A stretch of DNA of 64,000 bases from Capsulimonadaceae bacterium. Its GTDB lineage: Bacteria; Armatimonadota; Armatimonadia; Armatimonadales; Capsulimonadaceae. This document shows positions 895 through 16,527 of the stretch, piece after piece. Below the pieces are notes generated by a model. The model saw only the letters and a program-made list of their open reading frames with translations, made no database searches and was not told the origin of the DNA. The stretch is from positions 2,208,001 through 2,272,000 of the forward strand of contig OZ244065.1 in the NCBI GenBank assembly GCA_965215505.1, in the 5' to 3' direction. The translations under genes and the position numbers were made by a program. How positions within the stretch are numbered: the stretch's first letter is position 1; the number at the start of each line of letters is the position of its first letter.

Positions 895-1606
895 AATCAC
901 CTCGCTTCGCCCTATCGGCGGTCTTAGATATCAGAATTAAGATGTGTCGGTTTTGGAAGGCATGGCCCACCTTTTAAGGGAGCGGTTACCGCATATGTAA
1001 GGCACAAAATAGGTAGAGTACAAAGGCAGAGCAAAATGAGAAAGGCGGCTAAAAATGAAGAGAATTTCTGAGGGTGAATTATCAGTTTTTGGGTCAAAAC
1101 GTCAGGTAAACGCCTGAGAGATGACACCGTGACGAGGGTGTAGAGCAGTCAAGAAGTAACATGTTTCCCCTTTCCTGGCAATCTTCCGTACAGTTGGCGA
1201 AAGGCTCGAGCTTTTACCAAACCTTGTGGATGAAAGTTGCAGCAAACAATTGGTAGTACAGGAGGAACAGGTAAAACACAGTAACTGGACAACAGGACAC
1301 TGCCAGGATAGAATAACACATGAGCAACAAAGTTGTCAATACTAGCAACAGACAAATGGACACTGATGTCGAATGGTAGACAGACTGCGGTATGCGCCAA
1401 CGATTTCGCCATTCTGGAGCATTCTTATATACAAAGGTTTTGGGCGTCCTGTATTCACTGTTTTCTTCCAAGTGTTCAACAATGCGTAGAAAATGGGGTA
1501 AGATATCAACACTTCGTTTCCGGAAATATGGGGGATGAGGGGCCGTAAATTCGTGGTTTATTGCCATACATCGAACTTTGATGGTAGTAAATAACAGGTC
1601 GAGGTC

Positions 1607-1656
1607 GCACTTCGTTGACATCGAAGGGGTCACAAGTTCGAATCTTGTACTGTCCA
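1607..1656 (+). mobile_element. 3' half of tRNA-Val(GAC); probable att site of an integrated element
   Basis: Anticodon arm CTTCG-TTGACAT-CGAAG, T arm ACAAG-TTCGAAT-CTTGT and 3' acceptor strand ACTGTCC-A are present. No D arm or 5' acceptor strand upstream. Flanking DNA is AT-rich. Confidence 0.8.
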
Positions 1657-1778
1657 TTCCTCGCTCTGAGATCATGATAGGTGACTGTGGCTTTGGCTGG
1701 CTCAGTCACTTCAAGATCGTCATTCCCATCCTCGAATAAACCCGTCCTGAACTTACAGAAAACGCAAGGAGAAGCCGA

Positions 1779-2258
1779 ATGGCCGGTCCGAAAACCAGTC
1801 CTCCGCCAAAAGGGTCCTCCGTAGACACAGGGGGAGTCCACGCCAATAGAGGCCCTGCAAAGATGTACGCGGACAGTCCTTTGGCGATGCTTCCCGACAA
1901 GATTGAAGTCACCGGGCATCCGGCAAGGCATGATGAAATTGCCTATCTTCAGGAACTCTACACGGCTGAGAGTTGGAATGATGTACTCGGGTTCCTAATG
2001 GACAACCCCGCTCTGGCACCGCTTCTTTTGGAGGCCCGCCCTCGCCTGCATGACGTCTTCGCAGGAAGCCGATCCGTTCAACTACGCCTAGTTCCGGGCT
2101 ATGAGGAAGACGAACCGGCTTTGCTGTTCGCCGACATCATGACCACGGCGGACCCGATGCTTGCTTTCGATCAGATGAACCGGTTTGAAGACGAGTGGTG
2201 GCTCGATTCCATGACTCCCGCTCAAGGGCTTCTGCATTTTTCGGTGGAGTTCGCCTGA
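1779..2258 (+). CDS. Hypothetical protein, probable partner (antitoxin-like) of the HEPN protein
   Basis: AAGGAG RBS; acidic ORF; stop overlaps the next start (TGATG). Confidence 0.6.
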   Translation: MAGPKTSPPPKGSSVDTGGVHANRGPAKMYADSPLAMLPDKIEVTGHPARHDEIAYLQELYTAESWNDVLGFLMDNPALAPLLLEARPRLHDVFAGSRSVQLRLVPGYEEDEPALLFADIMTTADPMLAFDQMNRFEDEWWLDSMTPAQGLLHFSVEFA

Positions 2259-2665: not shown

Positions 2666-2890
2666 GAAGACCCAAAACAAAACGACGTTGCCTGTCGGCA
2701 GATTGTACTGCCCGTTTCTCCCCCGACCAACCCGACCACTTGTTCATAAGCCATCGCAATGCTGCTTCCACCTCGACCCGGCTCCTCAAGATCGCGCTTA
2801 TGACCCCGCCGGAGGGTATGTCTGGAAAAGCCCCGAATGACAATCGGCAATAGGAGTAGTGACACTATAGTCAGGGAAGGACGTCGAGAG

Positions 2891-9842: not shown

Positions 9843-10316
9843 ATGGCGGAACTGGATCTGGCCGCGCAGCTACGCGCGACGACGGAGAGGGCCTACAGCA
9901 ACCTGGTCAACGACCTGAACGCGCTGGACGAGGAGAAGGCGAGCGGCAGCCCGGATACGGCACTGCGCCCGGCGATCAAGGTAGTGGCGGAGTGCGGGTC
10001 GGTCAACGGGCTTCTGGCGGAACTGGTGACGACCGGCACCGCGACGAGGCCGTCGCCGGAAGAGCGGGAGGTCTATTACGCCTCCATCACGACGCGCGCC
10101 GAGGCGCTGGCCGAGCTGGAGAAGGGGACGCAAAAGCTGTACGCGGCCATTGACGGCGTCGCCCCGGACCGCTGGGGCGAGACGGTGCCGACGCCTCTTG
10201 GCCCGATGACTGTCCTGGGGGCGGCAAACTTCGCCGCCCTGCACATGATGTACCATGACGGGCAGATCAACTACCTGCACATGCTGCACGGCGACACGGA
10301 GATGCACTGGACGTAG
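9843..10316 (+). CDS. DinB/YfiT family protein
   Basis: C-terminal HMMYHDGQINY motif; AAGGAG RBS. Confidence 0.8.
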   Translation: MAELDLAAQLRATTERAYSNLVNDLNALDEEKASGSPDTALRPAIKVVAECGSVNGLLAELVTTGTATRPSPEEREVYYASITTRAEALAELEKGTQKLYAAIDGVAPDRWGETVPTPLGPMTVLGAANFAALHMMYHDGQINYLHMLHGDTEMHWT

Positions 10317-10342
10317 GCGGCTGACGGCGGGCGCGGGGGCGG

Positions 10343-11413
10343 TCAGCGCCCCCGCGACCGACCGGCTTGGAGTGTGACGAGGCCCGTCCCATCGGGGTTC
10401 TCCACCAGCGCGGCCTCGACGGGCAGGAACTGCGGGACGACCCACAGCACGGTCCGCAGGTGTTCTGTCACCTGAGAGGTCGTCCAGCGGCTCTCGCCCG
10501 CCGTCAGCGCCATCGGCAGGACAAGCTGGTCCGCCAGATGCTCCTCGCAGGCCGCGCCCGTCTCCCACCACGCTTTGAAGGCGTGGCAGACCTCCTCGGC
10601 GACGGCTTCCATGCGCTTGCCGCGCTCGCCGATGGCGGAGAAACCCGCCAACCCGCCTTCGCACTCGGCGACCAGAAGAACGGCAGCCCCCGCCCCGACC
10701 GAGGGCGCTTCGCGCATCTCGGTGGATAGCTCCACCGGCAGGCGACCCACTTCCTGACGCACGGCGGCGACGCCTCTCTCAGCGACGGTCGGAGGCAGCC
10801 CTGATGTCACGACGAGGGCCGTCACGGCGCGCAATCCGCCCCGCTCCGTCAACGTGATAGGCGAAATCGCGGCGTTCCCCGCGACCTCGGCACTCACCGC
10901 CCCTCCCCCTTTAGGAAAGAACCCCGCCTTCGGCGACAGCAGAGAAGCGGCCAGGCCGTGCCGCGCCAGTGTCGGCAGATAGACGCGCTCCAGGTAGTCC
11001 GCCGTCGGCGCGTGCGAGACGTGCGTCCCGCCGGTGACGGTGACGCGGGAGGCGGCAGGGGCAAAGGCGAGCGGCATCAGGACGGTTTGCAGGACGAGGG
11101 CCGTCGCCCCCGCCGTGCCGATGGCGAAGTGGTAGACGCCGTGCGTCGGCGGTGCCTGTGGGGCGAAGCGGAGGCGGACCGACCCGATCTCCGCGCCTTC
11201 CAGCGAGGCCGCACACAGCTCGGCTGCGGCCTTGACCGAGGCAAGATGCTGGGGCTGGAGGCCGGGCCGGGCGCGGCCCGCGCGTATCCGCACGATCTCG
11301 ACGGGCCGCCCCGTCAGGGCCGATAGGGACAGGCTCGTCCGCAAAATCTGCCCGCCGCCCTCCCCGTGCGACCCGTCAATGGTGACGCTGGATTGTGTGT
11401 CTAAGTTCTTCAT
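10343..11413 (-). CDS. rtcA: RNA 3'-terminal phosphate cyclase
   Basis: IDGSHGEGGGQILRT, RAGRARPGLQPQH, GFFPKGGG and HLADQL (catalytic His). Confidence 0.96.
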   Translation of the reverse strand: MKNLDTQSSVTIDGSHGEGGGQILRTSLSLSALTGRPVEIVRIRAGRARPGLQPQHLASVKAAAELCAASLEGAEIGSVRLRFAPQAPPTHGVYHFAIGTAGATALVLQTVLMPLAFAPAASRVTVTGGTHVSHAPTADYLERVYLPTLARHGLAASLLSPKAGFFPKGGGAVSAEVAGNAAISPITLTERGGLRAVTALVVTSGLPPTVAERGVAAVRQEVGRLPVELSTEMREAPSVGAGAAVLLVAECEGGLAGFSAIGERGKRMEAVAEEVCHAFKAWWETGAACEEHLADQLVLPMALTAGESRWTTSQVTEHLRTVLWVVPQFLPVEAALVENPDGTGLVTLQAGRSRGR

Positions 11414-11428
11414 GGCTGTCTTAGTATT

Positions 11429-11560
11429 CCCGTGCAGGCAGCGCGCCTATCCGAGACTTGTGCCCCTTCGGGGGCGGCAGGCGTCGGATCTTGGTGTTCG
11501 CTTTTGGAGACACGGACCGCCCGTGACCTCCCTTGATGGCGGCGCGCATGCATGCACGAA
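11429..11560 (-). ncRNA. Candidate structured RNA between tRNA-Arg and rtcA
   Basis: Long closing stem (CGUGCA/UGCACG plus GCGCGCC/GGCGCGC) encloses two hairpin arms: GGAG..CACGG/CCGUG..CUCC, and UCCGA/UCGGA around GCCCC-CGAA-GGGGC. Confidence 0.55.
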
Positions 11561-11561
11561 G

Positions 11562-11637
11562 TGGTGCTCCCGACAGGATTTGAACCTGTGGCCTCGACCG
11601 TCGCAGGATCGCGTTCTATCCGCTGAACTACGAGAGC
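11562..11637 (-). tRNA. tRNA-Arg(GCG)
   Basis: GCTCTCG acceptor; anticodon arm CGATC-CTGCGAC-GGTCG; T arm ACAGG-TTCAAAT-CCTGT; CCA encoded. Confidence 0.92.
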
Positions 11638-11647
11638 AATTCGAAAA

Positions 11648-11718
11648 CTCCTCGACCCGGATTCGAACCAGGGCGAACGCATTAACAGTGCGTGATGCTG
11701 CCGCTACATCATCGAGGA
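11648..11718 (-). tRNA. tRNA-Asn(GTT)
   Basis: TCCTCGA/TCGAGGA acceptor; G73; anticodon arm ACGCA-CTGTTAA-TGCGT; T loop TTCGAAT. Confidence 0.9.
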
Positions 11719-11763
11719 TCACGGCCCAGCGGTCTGTCATGACCGCCGGACCAAGTTAGAGAA

Positions 11764-11836
11764 TCGTGGCGGTGGGAATTGAACCCACGATTTACAGGGT
11801 ATGAGCCTGCCGCCTTACCAGCTTGGCTTCGCCACA
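11764..11836 (-). tRNA. tRNA-Met(CAT), atypical
   Basis: Anticodon arm GCAGG-CTCATAC-CCTGT; T arm GTGGG-TTCAATT-CCCAC; U1:G72 wobble; A at position 8. Confidence 0.85.
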
Positions 11837-11889
11837 ATGCCGTCTCTCGCTGCCCCTACCAGTCAGGGGGCAGGGGCAGAGTCCGGACG

Positions 11890-12123
11890 TCAGATGTCTG
11901 ACGCCCGGCGCGTGTGCTTGTAGTCCTGGCTGCGCTCGCGGACATATTCCACGGGCTGCCGCGCCCCGGCCCCGGTGACCTCCCAGCCGTCCTGGGTGAT
12001 TCCGTCCTCCGTCAGCCGCAGGAACCGCCCGACGACGGCGTGCTTCTCCGGTATCCAGGCCATCTGGTGCGCTGGCCCCCGCCGGAGCCGGCACTGGACG
12101 TAGTACTGTGTGTAGCCGGACAT
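11890..12123 (-). CDS. 77-aa hypothetical protein inside the tRNA array
   Basis: Strong RBS AAGGAG before ATG 12123; MSGYTQYYVQCRLRRG...WIPEKHAVVG...DGWEV...RRASDI. Confidence 0.8.
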   Translation of the reverse strand: MSGYTQYYVQCRLRRGPAHQMAWIPEKHAVVGRFLRLTEDGITQDGWEVTGAGARQPVEYVRERSQDYKHTRRASDI

Positions 12124-12149
12124 GATGTTTCTCCTTCCCTTTCTGACTG

Positions 12150-12782
12150 TTACACGGCGGCCCGCGCGACCAGCGCCTGGCTGATCGCGGCGGGTACTTC
12201 GGCGTAACCGGCGACGCTCATCGAGAACGACGCCCGCCCCTGCGTCAGCGAGCGCAGGTCGGTCGTGTAGCCGAACGTCTCGGCGACCGGGACGGTGGCC
12301 CGCACGACGGCCGTGCCGTCGGCCAATGCGCTCTGGCCCAGAAGATGCCCGCGACGCCGGGCGATGTCCCCCAGCACCGGCCCGACGAAGCCGCCCGGCG
12401 TCAGCACTTCGACCAGGCCGATCGGCTCGATGAGGATCATCGGCGCGTGCTTGCAGGCATCCAGGAACGCGAGACGCCCCGCCTCGGCGAAGGCGTAGTC
12501 GGTCGAGTCCACCGCGTGCCAGCTCCCGTCCACGACCGCCACCCGCACGTCCACCACGGGGTAGCCCGCCAGGACGCCGCCGGCCATCGCACTCCTGACG
12601 CCCTTCGCGATGCTCGGGAGGAAGATGCGGGGGATGACGCCGCCCACGAGGCCGCTGACGAACTCGAACCCCGCCCCCGCCTCCAGGGCTTCCAGCATAA
12701 GGACGCAGTACGCCTTCTGGCCTTTGCCGCCGTTCTGCTTGTCCACGCGGCCTTCGCCGCGATATCTGGTCTGGTCGGTCAT
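12150..12782 (-). CDS. Stand-alone EF-G domain IV-V protein (no GTPase domain)
   Basis: KQNGGKGQ, GVLAGYPVVDVRV, DGSWHAVDST, LIEPI, GDIARRRG and FGYTTDLRSLTQGRASFSM match the EF-G C-terminal domains; own AAGGAG RBS; 210 aa. Confidence 0.9.
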   Translation of the reverse strand: MTDQTRYRGEGRVDKQNGGKGQKAYCVLMLEALEAGAGFEFVSGLVGGVIPRIFLPSIAKGVRSAMAGGVLAGYPVVDVRVAVVDGSWHAVDSTDYAFAEAGRLAFLDACKHAPMILIEPIGLVEVLTPGGFVGPVLGDIARRRGHLLGQSALADGTAVVRATVPVAETFGYTTDLRSLTQGRASFSMSVAGYAEVPAAISQALVARAAV

Positions 12783-12815
12783 GGTCTTTCTCCTTCGTTC
12801 CCGGCGTTCGAGTGA

Positions 12816-12888
12816 AGCGGAAGGCGGGGCTTGAACCCGCAGCCTTCATGGTGGCACCGTGACGCTCCGCCGATTGAGCTACTTCCGC
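12816..12888 (-). tRNA. tRNA-Gly(GCC), atypical
   Basis: GCGGAAG/CTTCCGC acceptor; U73; anticodon arm TCACG-GTGCCAC-CATGA with one C:A mismatch and G32. Confidence 0.85.
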
Positions 12889-12925
12889 ATTGACTTAGTT
12901 CCGCGTGTCCTGCTCGTGGCAGGGA

Positions 12926-13000
12926 TGGAGATGGTCGGAATCGAACCGACGGCCTCCTGTTCTTCAGACAGGCGCTGCTACCGGACTGAGCTACATCTCC
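12926..13000 (-). tRNA. tRNA-Phe(GAA)
   Basis: GGAGATG/CATCTCC acceptor; anticodon arm CCTGT-CTGAAGA-ACAGG; T arm GTCGG-TTCGATT-CCGAC; irregular D stem. Confidence 0.88.
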
Positions 13001-13017
13001 ACAATCAACAGCCGAGA

Positions 13018-13053
13018 CAAACAAAACGGCCTCTCGCGTAGTGCGGGAGGCCG
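13018..13053 (-). terminator. Attenuator terminator C (upstream of tRNA-Phe)
   Basis: CGGCCTCCCGC-ACTAC-GCGAGAGGCCG followed by TTTTGTTTG on the minus strand. Confidence 0.85.
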
Positions 13054-13082
13054 GAGGGTTCATGGTGTGGCAGGATCGCTTG

Positions 13083-13247
13083 CTACAGCAAACGCTCCCT
13101 CCCCCATAAACCCTTCGCCCCCGCCATAAAGCGGGCACCGCCCATCGCCTGGACCTGACCTAACCCCGGCGTGACACGGCTCAGAATCAGGCGGCTTCCC
13201 GCCTGGTTCGCTTGAGCCGGTATGAAATTATTATTTGTCGCTATCAT
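13083..13247 (-). CDS. Putative leader peptide C (54 aa)
   Basis: MIATNNNFIPAQANQAGSRLILSRVTPGLGQVQAMGGARFMAGAKGLWGRERLL; starts 11 nt after an extended -10; 3' codons contain the antiterminator strand 13104-13124. Confidence 0.65.
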   Translation of the reverse strand: MIATNNNFIPAQANQAGSRLILSRVTPGLGQVQAMGGARFMAGAKGLWGRERLL

Positions 13248-13258
13248 TGCTGTTTAGG

Positions 13259-13267
13259 AGTATACCA
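13259..13267 (-). promoter_or_regulatory. Extended -10 promoter (TGgTATACT) for the Phe-Gly-...-rtcA unit
   Basis: TGGTATACT on the minus strand with AT-rich upstream DNA. Confidence 0.65.
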
Positions 13268-13337
13268 CGGTTTCATGGCAAATAACCATAAAGTTTACGG
13301 AGCTATCAATTTTATTTTCATGGCCGGTTGATCTGGA

Positions 13338-13409
13338 TGGGGACGCAGGGAGTTGAACCCTGACTTCGCGCTTAAAAGGCGCACACACTGACCGTTATGT
13401 TACATCCCC
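13338..13409 (-). tRNA. tRNA-Lys(TTT)
   Basis: GGGGATG/CGTCCCC acceptor; anticodon arm TGCGC-CTTTTAA-GCGCG; T arm CAGGG-TTCAACT-CCCTG. Confidence 0.88.
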
Positions 13410-13425
13410 GTCTTCTGACGCCGCC

Positions 13426-13464
13426 ACAAAAAGATCGGCCCCGCGCTGTCTGCACGGGACCGAT
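13426..13464 (-). terminator. Attenuator terminator B (upstream of tRNA-Lys)
   Basis: ATCGGTCCCGTGC-AGACA-GCGCGGGGCCGAT followed by CTTTTTGT. Confidence 0.85.
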
Positions 13465-13488
13465 TGTGTCTGTCTCTTTTCCTCTTCC

Positions 13489-13641
13489 CTAAAGCGGTGG
13501 GAGGAGCCGCCGATGAGGCGGCGACACGATCGGTCCCAGTATGAAGTTTTTGAGAAAGCCTGAAGCCGGGCGTAGCAGAGCCACGGCCAGGCGGTGACCC
13601 GGCATCATCTTTGTATTGCGTTTCGTCGTCAGGCTGGTCAT
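13489..13641 (-). CDS. Putative leader peptide B (50 aa)
   Basis: MTSLTTKRNTKMMPGHRLAVALLRPASGFLKNFILGPIVSPPHRRLLPPL; contains antiterminator strand 13523-13537; ends just before terminator B. Confidence 0.6.
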   Translation of the reverse strand: MTSLTTKRNTKMMPGHRLAVALLRPASGFLKNFILGPIVSPPHRRLLPPL

Positions 13642-13677
13642 TAGGTTTCGTCTCGGGTCAAGTAGGCGGGCGAATGC

Positions 13678-13721
13678 AAACACAAAACGCCCGCCTTCGG
13701 CACGGTGGCAGAAGGCGGGCG
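13678..13721 (-). terminator. Attenuator terminator A
   Basis: CGCCCGCCTTC...GAAGGCGGGCG followed by TTTTGTGTTT. Confidence 0.85.
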
Positions 13722-13757
13722 CTCGGAAAAAGGTCTTCCTGCGGGCTGGGCGCGAGG

Positions 13758-13874
13758 TCACTCGCGCCAGCCACCTCCTGCGGGGATAGGGCGACGCCCC
13801 TGGAAACCGAATGAGGGTTTCAGGGTGCCGCCGACCATCGGGCCGTTATTCGGTTGTTTCAGGGGCGAGTTCAT
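13758..13874 (-). CDS. Putative leader peptide A (38 aa)
   Basis: MNSPLKQPNNGPMVGGTLKPSFGFQGRRPIPAGGGWRE; ATG is 10 nt after the -10 box; contains antiterminator strand 13771-13781. Confidence 0.65.
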   Translation of the reverse strand: MNSPLKQPNNGPMVGGTLKPSFGFQGRRPIPAGGGWRE

Positions 13875-13884
13875 CGTGGGGGAC

Positions 13885-13914
13885 ACTCTACCCGACGCGC
13901 ACTGCCGTTGTCAA
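13885..13914 (-). promoter_or_regulatory. Sigma70-type promoter of the tRNA/rtcA locus
   Basis: TTGACA-18 nt-TAGAGT on the minus strand. Confidence 0.75.
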
Positions 13915-13983
13915 GAGCAGACGGAAAGTTTTTCGCGGCGGCAGGAATTCCGCCGTGCGTGCGGTATAGTCTAGGGGAAAGAA

Positions 13984-16527
13984 ATGTCACCTAACGCCCC
14001 CACGAAGCCTCATTCCAAGCGCCCCCCGGCCGCACTGGCGACTGTCGTCCTGTTGTCGCTGCTGTCCTGGATGGCGCTGGCCGGTCCCGCCGCGCCGGAT
14101 GCTGTCGCGATCCGGCCTCTTGACAAGGCCGAAGCGCGCGGTGTCAATTACCGGCATCAGATCCAGCCGCTTCTGGCAAGCCGCTGCGGCCAGTGCCACG
14201 GCGGGGCCGCGCCGTCGGGGGGCCTCAGCGTCGTGTCACTGGCCGCGCTCCTGCGGGGCGGCGCGCACGGGTTGGACATAGTGGTCGGCAAGCCCGACGA
14301 GAGCGCGCTGATCCAGTATGTGCGCGGGCTGAGGACGCCCCGGATGCCGATGAGCGGCCCCGCCCTCTCGGTAGACGAGGTCCACTTGCTGCGCGAATGG
14401 GTTTTCGCCGGGGCGCGTGACGACGCGGTGGCAGGTGGCGCGGCGGGCGTCCAAGCGCGTCCCATCGCTCAGTTGCCAATCGAGGACGAGTCGGGATTGA
14501 GTCTCGCCGAGCTGCGGGTCAAGCACCTGGCCCGGCTGCCCCGCGCGCCTGCCGTCCCGGTCGTCAGTGCGCCCGCCTTCAACGAGATCGACCGCTTTAT
14601 CGCGGCGAAGTGGCGGGAAAAGAAATTCCCCACGCCGCCGGTCTGCGACGATAATGCCTTCGTGCGGCGGGTCTATCTAGACGTGGTCGGCGTCATCCCA
14701 ACGACCGCGCAAGCGCTGGCCTTTGTGCAGGACAGGACTCCCGGCAAACGAACGCGCCTCGTGGACGGTCTGTTGGCCCGTGATGACGACTACGCAGCCA
14801 ATTGGACTCCCTTCTGGGAGGACGCGCTGGCCTCCAACGGCGCGCACCAGGGCGGGGCCGGGTCACGCCCCAACCTGCGGTCCTGGCTTGCCGAGAACCT
14901 GCGGCACAACCGGCCCTATGATGAGATGGTCGCCGAACTGATCGACCCCACTTCTAGCGGCCCGACGGCCCCGCTGGCGCGCGGCTGGATACAGAACGCC
15001 GACCACACCGAGACGGCCCAGAGCGCGGCGTATGTCGCCCAGGTCTTCATGGGCACGGCGGTCAAGTGCGCCTCCTGCCACAACCACTTCCTGAACCCCG
15101 AGTGGCCCCAGAAGAAGTTCATGGGCTATGCCAGCTACTTTACGCCCCAGAACATGGAGGTGATCCGGTGCGAGGTGCATGAAGGCGAGTTCGTCCCGCC
15201 CACCTTCCTGTTCGACCAGCCGAGCGCGCGCAATGCCGCCGCCCACACGCCGCTCGATCAGGACCACCGCCTGCGTCAAGTTTCGCGGCTGATCGTGGAC
15301 CCCGAAAACCCCCGCTTCGCGACCTGTATCGTCAACCGCCTTTGGAAGCGCTACTTCGGCCTGGGCCTGGTCGAGCCGGCCGACGACTTCCGGGCGGAGG
15401 GCCGCGCTCCGAGCCACCCGGCCCTGCTGTCCTGGCTGGCCGATGATTTCATGCGCCACGGCTACGACCTGAAGCACACGATCCGGCTGATGCTGACCAG
15501 CCGCACCTATCAGCTCCGCTATGACCCGCGCCTGGCCGACACGTTCAGCGCCGCCGCCCCGGACGCCCCGCGCTTTTACCGCTCCCCCACCCTGCGCCGC
15601 CTGACCGAGGAGCAGCTTCTGGACAGCGTGAACGTCGCCATCGGCAACACGGGTGCGCCGCGCGCTTATTTGGACGGCGACTCGACCGCCCTTTCGCGCG
15701 CCCTCGGCAAGCCCGCCGCCCGTAACGAAGTTTCGACATCGCGCTCCGATGATGTCGCCGTCGTGCAGGCTCTGGAACTCCTGAACGGCGGGGAGTTCAA
15801 CCGCCGCGTCGCACTTGGAACGCTGGACCGGGAGTTGTCGGAGGAGCCGGAGTGGCCGCGCATCGTCAGCCGCGCTTATTGGGCGACACTGGGCCGCGCG
15901 CCGACTTCTAAAGAACTCGGGGCCGGCAACCAGTTTTTAGAAGCCGCACCGCCCATCCCGCCGAGCAGTCAGACCCCAACCGAGGCCATGTGGTGGGAGG
16001 ACGGCCCGCCCGCCGGGACGATGCTGCAAGGGCCGTGGCAGATAACCTCGGGCCTCGTCTACTCCGGCAAACAGGCCCACACCGCGCCCATCATGGCGGG
16101 CGCACAGCAGCACTACTTTCTGGGCGCGGCCACGCCGCTCTCCGTCGGGATGGGTGATACGCTGTTTACCTACGCTTATCTTGACCCGAAGGCCATGCCG
16201 CGCGAGGTCATGCTTCAGTGGAACGACGGCCTCTGGGAGCATCGGGCGTTCTGGGGCGAAGACCTGATCAACTTCGGCACGACGGCCACAACAAGCCGTC
16301 GGCGAATGGGCGACCTGCCCGCACCGGGAAAATGGGTGCGCCTGGAGGTCGCCGCCGACGCCGTGGGTCTGGCCGGGCACGAGATCGGTGGGATGTCTTT
16401 CGACCAGTTTGACGGGCGTGTCACGTTCGACCACAGCGGCGTGGTCCACGCCGTCCCGCCGCGCCCGGCCATCGTGGATATGCTGTGGGCGTTGACGGTC
16501 AGCCCGGAGTTCCAGTATATCCGGTGA
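13984..16527 (+). CDS. PSD1 / planctomycete cytochrome c domain protein (DUF1549/DUF1553)
   Basis: Signal peptide; CGQCH and CASCH heme motifs; RRVYLDVVG, VNRLWKRYFGLGLVEP and SPEFQY motifs. Confidence 0.9.
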   Translation: MSPNAPTKPHSKRPPAALATVVLLSLLSWMALAGPAAPDAVAIRPLDKAEARGVNYRHQIQPLLASRCGQCHGGAAPSGGLSVVSLAALLRGGAHGLDIVVGKPDESALIQYVRGLRTPRMPMSGPALSVDEVHLLREWVFAGARDDAVAGGAAGVQARPIAQLPIEDESGLSLAELRVKHLARLPRAPAVPVVSAPAFNEIDRFIAAKWREKKFPTPPVCDDNAFVRRVYLDVVGVIPTTAQALAFVQDRTPGKRTRLVDGLLARDDDYAANWTPFWEDALASNGAHQGGAGSRPNLRSWLAENLRHNRPYDEMVAELIDPTSSGPTAPLARGWIQNADHTETAQSAAYVAQVFMGTAVKCASCHNHFLNPEWPQKKFMGYASYFTPQNMEVIRCEVHEGEFVPPTFLFDQPSARNAAAHTPLDQDHRLRQVSRLIVDPENPRFATCIVNRLWKRYFGLGLVEPADDFRAEGRAPSHPALLSWLADDFMRHGYDLKHTIRLMLTSRTYQLRYDPRLADTFSAAAPDAPRFYRSPTLRRLTEEQLLDSVNVAIGNTGAPRAYLDGDSTALSRALGKPAARNEVSTSRSDDVAVVQALELLNGGEFNRRVALGTLDRELSEEPEWPRIVSRAYWATLGRAPTSKELGAGNQFLEAAPPIPPSSQTPTEAMWWEDGPPAGTMLQGPWQITSGLVYSGKQAHTAPIMAGAQQHYFLGAATPLSVGMGDTLFTYAYLDPKAMPREVMLQWNDGLWEHRAFWGEDLINFGTTATTSRRRMGDLPAPGKWVRLEVAADAVGLAGHEIGGMSFDQFDGRVTFDHSGVVHAVPPRPAIVDMLWALTVSPEFQYIR

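Follow-up and report, generated by a model that had tools for sequence, protein, structure and literature searches.

The classical leader-peptide attenuators are trpL, hisL, thrL, leuL and pheL, together with pheM in front of pheST. T-box riboswitches tie the decision between a terminator and an antiterminator to the status of a tRNA, and their targets are genes of synthetases and amino acids rather than tRNA genes. The tRNA genes themselves are textbook cases of promoter-level control, exerted through growth rate, the stringent response or, in Anabaena, a repressor. The locus described here lies in a stretch of 64,000 nucleotides (nt) from a Capsulimonadaceae bacterium of soil (GenBank assembly GCA_965215505.1, contig OZ244065.1, positions 2,208,001 to 2,272,000; hereafter the window), in which positions 13914-13424 of the minus strand form the head of a supernumerary tRNA array. 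This head holds one promoter and two modules, A and B, each with a short open reading frame (ORF1 and ORF2) and a pair of competing helices, and we propose, with a probability of about one half, that the modules are ribosome-dependent attenuators in series that report general translation status.

The principle of leader-peptide attenuation has been described (PMC1183508, PMC4007540), and leaderless leader peptides are found before synthetase genes in Deinococcus deserti (PMC4007540). A spare tRNA array, the trn operon of Anabaena sp. PCC 7120, is silent and becomes induced, together with rtcB, by translational stress (PMC8421152); its control has been ascribed to promoter repeats and the repressor TrcR (PMC8421152, PMC10272220). 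A term search of the main texts found no use of terminator, attenuation or leader in the first of these two papers and none of the corresponding terms in the second. By a term search, tRNA genes go unmentioned in a survey of premature terminators (PMC2965389), and full-text searching of the literature found no leader-peptide attenuator before tRNA genes. A cmscan search of positions 10000-16000 against Rfam, at E values up to 10, returned only tRNAs and chance matches, i.e., no leader family and no T-box.

Six copies of the tandem unit were compared, namely that of the window and those of G012, G015, L040, G066 and L039 (the last lacking its 5' end), which are genomes or contigs of two genera. 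The regulatory head lies in the gap in front of tRNA-Lys(UUU) (Table 1), and its promoter was found by a promoter scan that listed two promoter-like sites in 12700-14200, where 0.3 would be expected from shuffled sequence. Both hexamers are kept, with a diverging spacer, in all five copies that retain the promoter region (the window, G012, G015, L040 and G066). Since the scan found no promoter-like site from 13885 to 13410, i.e., up to tRNA-Lys, this tRNA must be transcribed through both terminators; only ~15 nt separate it from the U-tract of terminator B. A separate promoter for module B was considered and rejected, as the scan found none.

Within module A, 10 nt separate the -10 box from the start of ORF1, and a strand near the end of this ORF (GCAGGAGGTGG) pairs with CCGCCTTCTGC at 11 of 11 positions, two of them as G-U. 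The duplex has an energy of -19.6 kcal/mol, and one of 1000 dinucleotide shuffles (for A, of the upstream 157 nt) was equally good. In module B, ORF2 is placed after terminator A and begins in an A-rich, unstructured region, and GGGACCGATCGTGTC pairs with GACACAATCGGTCCC at 14 of 15 positions (-25.7 kcal/mol), which none of 1000 shuffles matched. The promoter scan also listed two terminator-like hairpins, one at 13703-13687, the inner part of the terminator A stem, and one at 13464-13434, in terminator B. Antiterminator and terminator share 8-11 nt in module A of the window and 9 nt in module B, making the two helices of each module mutually exclusive. The original prediction for this stretch, made from its letters alone, had named the promoter, a near-leaderless 38-amino acid (aa) ORF, a 50-aa ORF following with no gene between, and the two pairings, that of B overlapping the 5' arm of terminator B; all were present as described, on the minus strand. 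Its reading of two switches in series found partial support, in that both modules show terminator and antiterminator anatomy and the tandem arrangement is kept across the two genera.

Constrained folding, which had been suggested as a check, allowed both conformers to be scored for each module of the window: the antiterminator conformer reached -88.3 kcal/mol and the terminator conformer -97.2 kcal/mol in A, with -96.7 and -98.3 kcal/mol, respectively, in B. Compared with shuffles, folding gave z = -5.4 for module A and z = -2.7 for module B. When transcripts were cut before the 3' arm of the terminator, the minimum free energy (MFE) structure contained antiterminator A in five of the six copies (not in L040) and antiterminator B in all six. 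In the MFE structure of full-length modules, terminator A was present in 6/6 copies and terminator B in 4/6. Terminator B pairs in 96.9% of cells (five sequences); terminator A of G012 has a poor U-tract. The GGAGG within the antiterminator A strand resembles a Shine-Dalgarno sequence, and a role for it at a downstream start was rejected, the GTG at 13761 being absent in G015 and G066.

In the relatives, indels leave the frames of both ORFs intact, and the two alternative helices can still be folded. All five complete copies have ORF1 open from the aligned ATG (38, 38, 38, 25 and 32 aa, with 13 codons deleted in frame in G015), and 6-13 nt separate its stop codon from the antiterminator strand before it. 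ORF2 is uninterrupted in each of the six copies with the terminator (50, 70, 71, 70, 53 and 64 aa), its length changing by 3-21 codons. A metagenomic variant of the locus shows 15 listed substitutions and no indel in ORF2, with four 1-nt deletions in the spacer upstream; among the differences listed, 7 of 12 changed ORF2 codons are synonymous by a manual and incomplete count. For such variants only, contigs of four runs were compared with the locus, and two joints in X10 (sides of 28 and 38 letters, 80% likeness) were disregarded. Some peptide motifs are also conserved: ORF2 has GPIVSPP, the end of ORF1 has IPAGGG, and the family of related modules described below has an N-rich N-terminus. Since ORF1 and ORF2 of G012 and L040 have an L-D-F-Q motif in common, A and B look like a tandem duplication. 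Frames that stay open around barely constrained peptides are what might be expected of regulatory leaders, and they are no proof of translation.

The copies were collected in several ways. A blastn search against 41 relatives recovered the A/B region in G012, in G015 and partially in G022, besides the organism's own genome, and a search over every genome of the genus (24) added no match to these three. Among 16 stretches picked out by a pattern scan of one genome per species, L016 alone was homologous (the same locus as G015); G012, with a gap of 56 nt, was missed because the gap limit was 55 nt. Metagenome contigs, scanned once with a stricter pattern, gave L039 and L040, both homologous, and G066, which belongs to another genus and has the tandem unit in front of tRNA-Lys, was reached via an order-wide search with an RNA model of module C (see below). 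Profiles of A, B and C run against the organism's own genome with nhmmer found single copies only. In G022 (L005 1440-1520, minus strand), the frame of ORF2 runs on into the promoter region of module C because terminator B and tRNA-Lys have been deleted, an arrangement that shows modules to be reshuffled as units.

Altogether, the family comprises ~25 modules including A and B, nearly all of them directly upstream of tRNA genes, and one ORF ends between the two helix strands in 25 of 26 modules, a count made by manual reading rather than by a scripted tally; L071 is the exception. One of them is module C, which lies downstream of tRNA-Lys in the array. By reading of the sequence it has an extended -10 promoter, which the promoter scan did not list, and the start of its ORF3 is rich in the rare codons AAT and ATA. 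Among module C homologues, the frame is kept in 9/9 (43-71 aa) and the other frames carry 1-6 stops. The long-range helix and the stop-codon hairpin of C comprise 17 pairs, and in 9 of them both bases change, a number reached by none of 500 shuffles. A covariance model of this domain matched strongly in 10 genomes of the genus (of 24), always inside tRNA arrays. Matches lay directly upstream of a tRNA at 7/9 strong loci and at 7/20 further, weaker loci, one of the latter seven being L066 in the organism's own genome, before tRNA-Tyr; no tRNA is near the other 13 weaker loci, which may be false matches.

The additional modules consist of a promoter, an ORF of 38-78 codons whose late codons, often at a Pro-Pro, contain the 5' strand of the helix, a stop codon between the helix strands, and a terminator 15-45 nt before the tRNA. 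Besides the type D module of the organism's own genome, others of this type occur in G011, G012, G003 and G014 before Tyr or Cys-Tyr tRNAs, and a module of G066 with a C-like start and a B-like helix ties the module types together. Considering all 63 tRNA genes of the genome, terminators stand just upstream of 9, as compared with 119 of 2000 random sites, the strong ones being those of Lys, Phe, Tyr and two Ile tRNAs. Five peptides, three of the window and two of module C, matched no family in Pfam or NCBIfam; a resemblance of the C-type N-terminus to flagellin was dropped on that ground. By reading, diverged modules of types B, C and D also have a central motif, G(T/C)CACGCC(T)G, which codes for S/P-R-L and in the window lies at ~13575-13565 and ~13170-13160 on the minus strand.

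Like an attenuator, the head of the array has a short ORF at its 5' end and, ahead of the genes to be regulated, a terminator with which an alternative helix is mutually exclusive. Since a helix enclosing the end of the ORF competes with the terminator, ribosome occupancy of that end and the antiterminator would exclude each other. In each module, the last codons of the ORF would serve as the 5' strand of a long-range antiterminator helix around the stop codon, and the 3' strand of that helix would double as the 5' arm of the intrinsic terminator. If the end of the ORF is free of ribosomes, i.e., if translation is slow, stalled upstream or not initiated, the helix would form first, the terminator would not, and transcription would read through. 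A ribosome close behind the polymerase and on the end of the ORF would block the helix, and the terminator would form. The blocking position would be the stop codon in module A and the conserved Pro-Pro just after the strand in module B. Poor translation would then switch on the spare tRNAs, an EF-G-like protein and RtcA. That the ORFs are translated, for which the kept frames and a weak in-frame pN/pS signature (see below) are indirect evidence, we infer, as we do the sign of the switch and its signal. With no run of a single codon in them, the leaders most likely sense how fast translation proceeds overall and not the supply of one tRNA.

A number of observations weigh against this proposal. 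The ratio of nonsynonymous to synonymous change (pN/pS) gives ORF1 no coding signature (0.79 in frame versus 0.58 and 0.98 in the other frames), and the signature is weak both for ORF2 (0.64 in frame versus 0.94 and 0.82 off frame) and for ORF3 (0.70 in frame). The G+C content of third codon positions (GC3) is 0.67-0.71 in the leaders as compared with 0.84-0.92 in neighbouring genes, an open frame of 38-50 codons is in itself unremarkable at 66% G+C, and a protein database search with ORF2 gave no called homologue. Neither ORF1 nor ORF2 is preceded by a Shine-Dalgarno sequence and, by reading, the 5' untranslated region (UTR) of ORF1 ranges from ~3 nt to ~45 nt between genomes, so that initiation is unproven. 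However, by a crude count, 31% of 2,676 long ORFs are preceded by the Shine-Dalgarno core motif, which also occurs in 15% of random windows, and, considering this weak usage in the genome, its absence is too weak a sign to count against translation. Finally, in one module (L071 ~1500-1830, minus strand, from G058, another genus) a C-type ORF is split in two with an ATGA overlap, which could be an assembly error.

The RNA structures raise difficulties of their own. The full-length MFE structure of module B retains the antiterminator in L040 and G066, and in G015 the B helix and the terminator coexist in the MFE structure because they overlap by only 3-4 nt; in module C, too, the overlap between helix and terminator is only 3 nt. 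Antiterminator B pairs in 90% of cells versus 27-43% with the partner slid (five sequences), a value not above shuffles. Two of its pairs change on both sides, one being A-U, G-C or G-U (with the same 3' base improving the terminator in G015) and the other U-A or G-C, and this covariation is not above shuffles either, 220 of 500 of which reached it; one position of the helix is mismatched in two of the five sequences. Within the genus, covariation of antiterminator A is nil because both strands of the helix are invariant; in G066 both strands differ in sequence and the helix still forms. The covariation that had been suggested as a check on homologues is weak for A and B themselves and strong for their paralogue C. 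No anti-antiterminator was found in the modules; the MFE structure of module B has only a weak pairing between the ORF2 5' UTR and the B strand which, by reading of the relatives, is not conserved. It had also been predicted that complete translation masks the antiterminator. For module A this follows directly from geometry, as a ribosome at the ORF1 stop codon would cover about half of the 5' strand. In module B, a ribosome at the ORF2 stop would leave the strand free, at least 14 nt behind its footprint, so that the model works only if the ribosome pauses at the Pro-Pro after the strand.

Some of these points would be expected if the leaders were untranslated structured RNAs, either riboregulators that respond to a protein, a tRNA or a small molecule or trans-acting small RNAs, with the frames a by-product of RNA constraint and high G+C content. 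The strong structure of both modules (the z values given above), the covariation in paralogue C, the lack of a coding signature in ORF1, the atypical GC3 of the leaders, the lack of Shine-Dalgarno sequences and, by reading, the central nucleotide motif common to the module types all agree with such RNAs. We nevertheless consider them unlikely, since 25 of 26 frames are kept through many indels while the other frames of C carry stops, the indels of the metagenomic variant fall in the spacer and none in ORF2, ORF2 and ORF3 have a lower pN/pS in their own frame than in the others, the stop codon always lies between the helix strands, and the Rfam search found no family.

A more specific signal formed part of the original prediction, by which the AAA codons would let both leaders sense charged tRNA-Lys(UUU), and stalling at AAA would lead to read-through and so to more tRNA-Lys, as in an autoregulatory AND gate. 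In its favour, ORF1 has two AAA codons and ORF2 two AAA and one AAG, so that four of the five Lys codons are the minor one, AAA being used at 5.6 and AAG at 18.9 per 1000 codons in the genome. By reading, all Lys codons in the leaders of relatives are AAA. In G015, the one copy with no tRNA-Lys downstream, where the tandem unit precedes tRNA-Pro and tRNA-Met, neither leader has a Lys codon, although this is a single case with an estimated chance probability of ~0.14. Relatives also have a Lys-rich mini-ORF directly before tRNA-Lys (see below). However, each leader holds two scattered AAA codons with no run, and clustered regulatory codons cognate to the downstream product are absent. Lys is only modestly more frequent in the leaders than estimated for the genome, and the bias of the leaders towards A/T-ending codons covers all codons and not Lys alone. 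The AAA codons stand 70-130 nt upstream of the antiterminator strands, not beside the competing helix, and read-through feeds five other tRNAs and RtcA as well. Moreover, the same leader type precedes different tRNAs in paralogous modules: the module C leader stays N-rich before Phe, Gly or Leu tRNAs, and type D stands before Tyr or Cys tRNAs with no matching codon enrichment. Since there is no codon run and the paralogous leaders do not match their tRNAs, Lys-specific sensing is unsupported and quite improbable, and a general translation sensor fits better; nor do the data support the AND gate, by which two switches in series would sharpen the response. Likewise improbable are ordinary small-protein genes with leaky terminators, whose peptides would have a function of their own, the tRNAs being co-transcribed by constitutive partial read-through, which would account for the conserved frames and for the conserved IPAGGG, GPIVSPP and N-rich segments but not for the very weak constraint on peptides of 25-81 aa, the lack of any Pfam or NCBIfam match or protein-search homologue, the coincidence of the conserved segments with RNA helix strands, or a terminator arm that is always complementary to late ORF codons.

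The array behind the two modules consists of six tRNAs within 1.85 kb (11562-13409, minus strand), i.e., Lys(UUU), Phe, Gly(GCC), Met, Asn and Arg(GCG). Each of them has a second copy among the 63 tRNA genes of the genome, at 56-70% identity (tRNA-Lys(UUU) agrees with its counterpart at 44 of 76 aligned positions), which suggests that the array tRNAs may be a foreign or ancient separate set. The same array holds 14 tRNAs in L040 and 24 in G066, so the window has a reduced version, and with six tRNAs it is below the L-array criterion of at least 20 tRNA genes at a density of at least two per kb (PMC4758250, PMC8421152). By reading, an RNA-ligase-like gene ends just upstream of module C in relatives. 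Relatives also have, in the space from terminator B to tRNA-Lys(UUU), a Lys-rich mini-ORF that is preceded by a Shine-Dalgarno sequence and continues into the tRNA; it has 4-5 Lys within its first 10 codons, mostly AAA, and may gate the maturation of tRNA-Lys. The window has lost it by a deletion of ~30 nt at ~13420-13410.

Table 1. Features of the regulatory head, of the array behind it and of related modules; positions are those of the window unless another source is named.
Feature	Position	Strand	Description	Basis
Gap with regulatory head		-	574 nt, between a PSCyt/DUF1549/DUF1553 gene (13984-16527, divergent) and tRNA-Lys(UUU)	
Promoter of array	13885..13914	-	TTGACA (13914-13909), 18-nt spacer, TAGAGT (13890-13885)	Promoter scan
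Leader ORF1	13758..13874	-	ATG 13874 to TGA 13760-13758, 38 aa	Sequence, homologue frames
Antiterminator A, 5' strand	13771..13781	-	GCAGGAGGTGG, Shine-Dalgarno-like; codons A-G-G-G, 3 codons before the stop	
Hairpin at ORF1 stop	13744..13772	-	Stop codon UGA in the loop	MFE; equivalent in G012, L039, L040
Antiterminator A, 3' strand	13708..13718	-	CCGCCTTCTGC, overlaps 5' arm of terminator A	
Intrinsic terminator A	13678..13720	-	10-bp core stem, GCCCGCCTTC (13720-13711) / GAAGGCGGGC (13698-13689), then GTTTTGTGTTT	
Leader ORF2	13489..13641	-	ATG 13641 to TAG 13491-13489, 50 aa; no promoter or Shine-Dalgarno sequence of its own	
Antiterminator B, 5' strand	13523..13537	-	GGGACCGATCGTGTC, codons L-G-P-I-V-S, directly before the conserved Pro-Pro	
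Antiterminator B, 3' strand	13456..13470	-	GACACAATCGGTCCC, 9 nt in common with 5' arm of terminator B	
Intrinsic terminator B	13424..13464	-	13-bp stem (13464-13434), 5-nt loop, CTTTTTGTGG	
tRNA-Lys(UUU)	13338..13409	-	First gene behind both switches; divergent second copy	
Module C	13017..13300	-	Before tRNA-Phe and tRNA-Gly; ORF3 13247-13083 (54 aa), long-range helix, stop-codon hairpin, terminator 13053-13027	
EF-G-like protein	12150-12782	-	Stand-alone EF-G domain IV and C-terminal-domain protein, 210 aa	
78-aa ORF	11890-12126	-	No Pfam match; recurs in arrays of relatives	
RtcA	10343-11413	-	RNA 3'-phosphate cyclase, end of array	
Type D module	L066 1280-1620 = G000:C1 ~5944150-5944490		Own genome, outside the window; TTGACA-17-TATTAT, 73-aa ORF, helix at Pro-Pro-Val, terminator, before second tRNA-Tyr	
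Lys-rich mini-ORF	L003 2036-2098; L040 3998-4045; L039 497-550; L072 ~2752-2785 (-)		Relatives	

With the array and its neighbours in view, a wider and more tentative form of the proposal may be put forward, in which the head of the array is a ribosome-based alarm. Slowed decoding, as might be caused by anticodon-nuclease attack on tRNA-Lys(UUU) and other tRNAs, by ribosome-targeting antibiotics or by starvation, would uncouple ribosomes from RNA polymerase on the leaders and so turn on a back-up island of tRNAs, EF-G-like protein and RtcA. The Lys-codon-rich mini-ORF of the relatives could be a third checkpoint, letting tRNA-Lys mature only if AAA decoding fails, and control of this kind could apply to tRNA genes family-wide. 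If true, an attenuator read by ribosomes ahead of tRNA genes would let decoding performance feed back directly on the supply of tRNAs, and it would provide a mechanism by which "cryptic" spare tRNA arrays are silenced and then woken under translational stress or attack by phages or toxins. Translation-coupled attenuation would in that case be a general form of tRNA-gene control in this family of Armatimonadota, and the tandem arrangement, along with the ~25 related modules, offers natural variants with which such a switch could be dissected.

Compared with known systems, the head of the array is like the classical attenuators in having a promoter-proximal small ORF, a terminator before the regulated genes and an antiterminator that would be set by the position of the ribosome. 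Unlike them, it has no run of regulatory codons and no anti-antiterminator that we could find, its leaders have 25-81 codons in place of ~14-30, and the antiterminator strand lies inside the ORF, so that the helix encloses the stop codon. The classical attenuators regulate enzymes, whereas here tRNAs would be regulated, by two modules in tandem that have no Rfam leader match. With T-boxes and tandem riboswitches the locus has in common a tRNA-linked choice between terminator and antiterminator and the placing of two switches in series on one transcript; unlike T-boxes, it has no T-box match and no specifier or T-box sequence, and its modules carry ORFs.

Upstream of vmlR, bmrCD and mef/mel-msrD, the translation state of an ORF likewise picks between terminator and antiterminator, and impaired translation is the input (PMC9226507, PMC4191407, PMC4335068). 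In those systems, drug-bound ribosomes are reported to stall on particular nascent peptides and to control resistance proteins, whereas the leaders of the array have no known arrest motif and their output would be tRNAs and RNA-repair genes. The Anabaena array resembles that of the window in its supernumerary, divergent tRNAs and in the presence of an RNA-repair gene (rtcB there, RtcA here), and its silence until translation is impaired is the behaviour that we would predict for the locus described here. In Anabaena, a DNA-binding repressor acts at the promoter, whereas the candidate sensor here is the ribosome itself; if the alarm reading is true, the two leader modules would match, at the level of RNA, the repressor circuit by which the array of Anabaena is induced.

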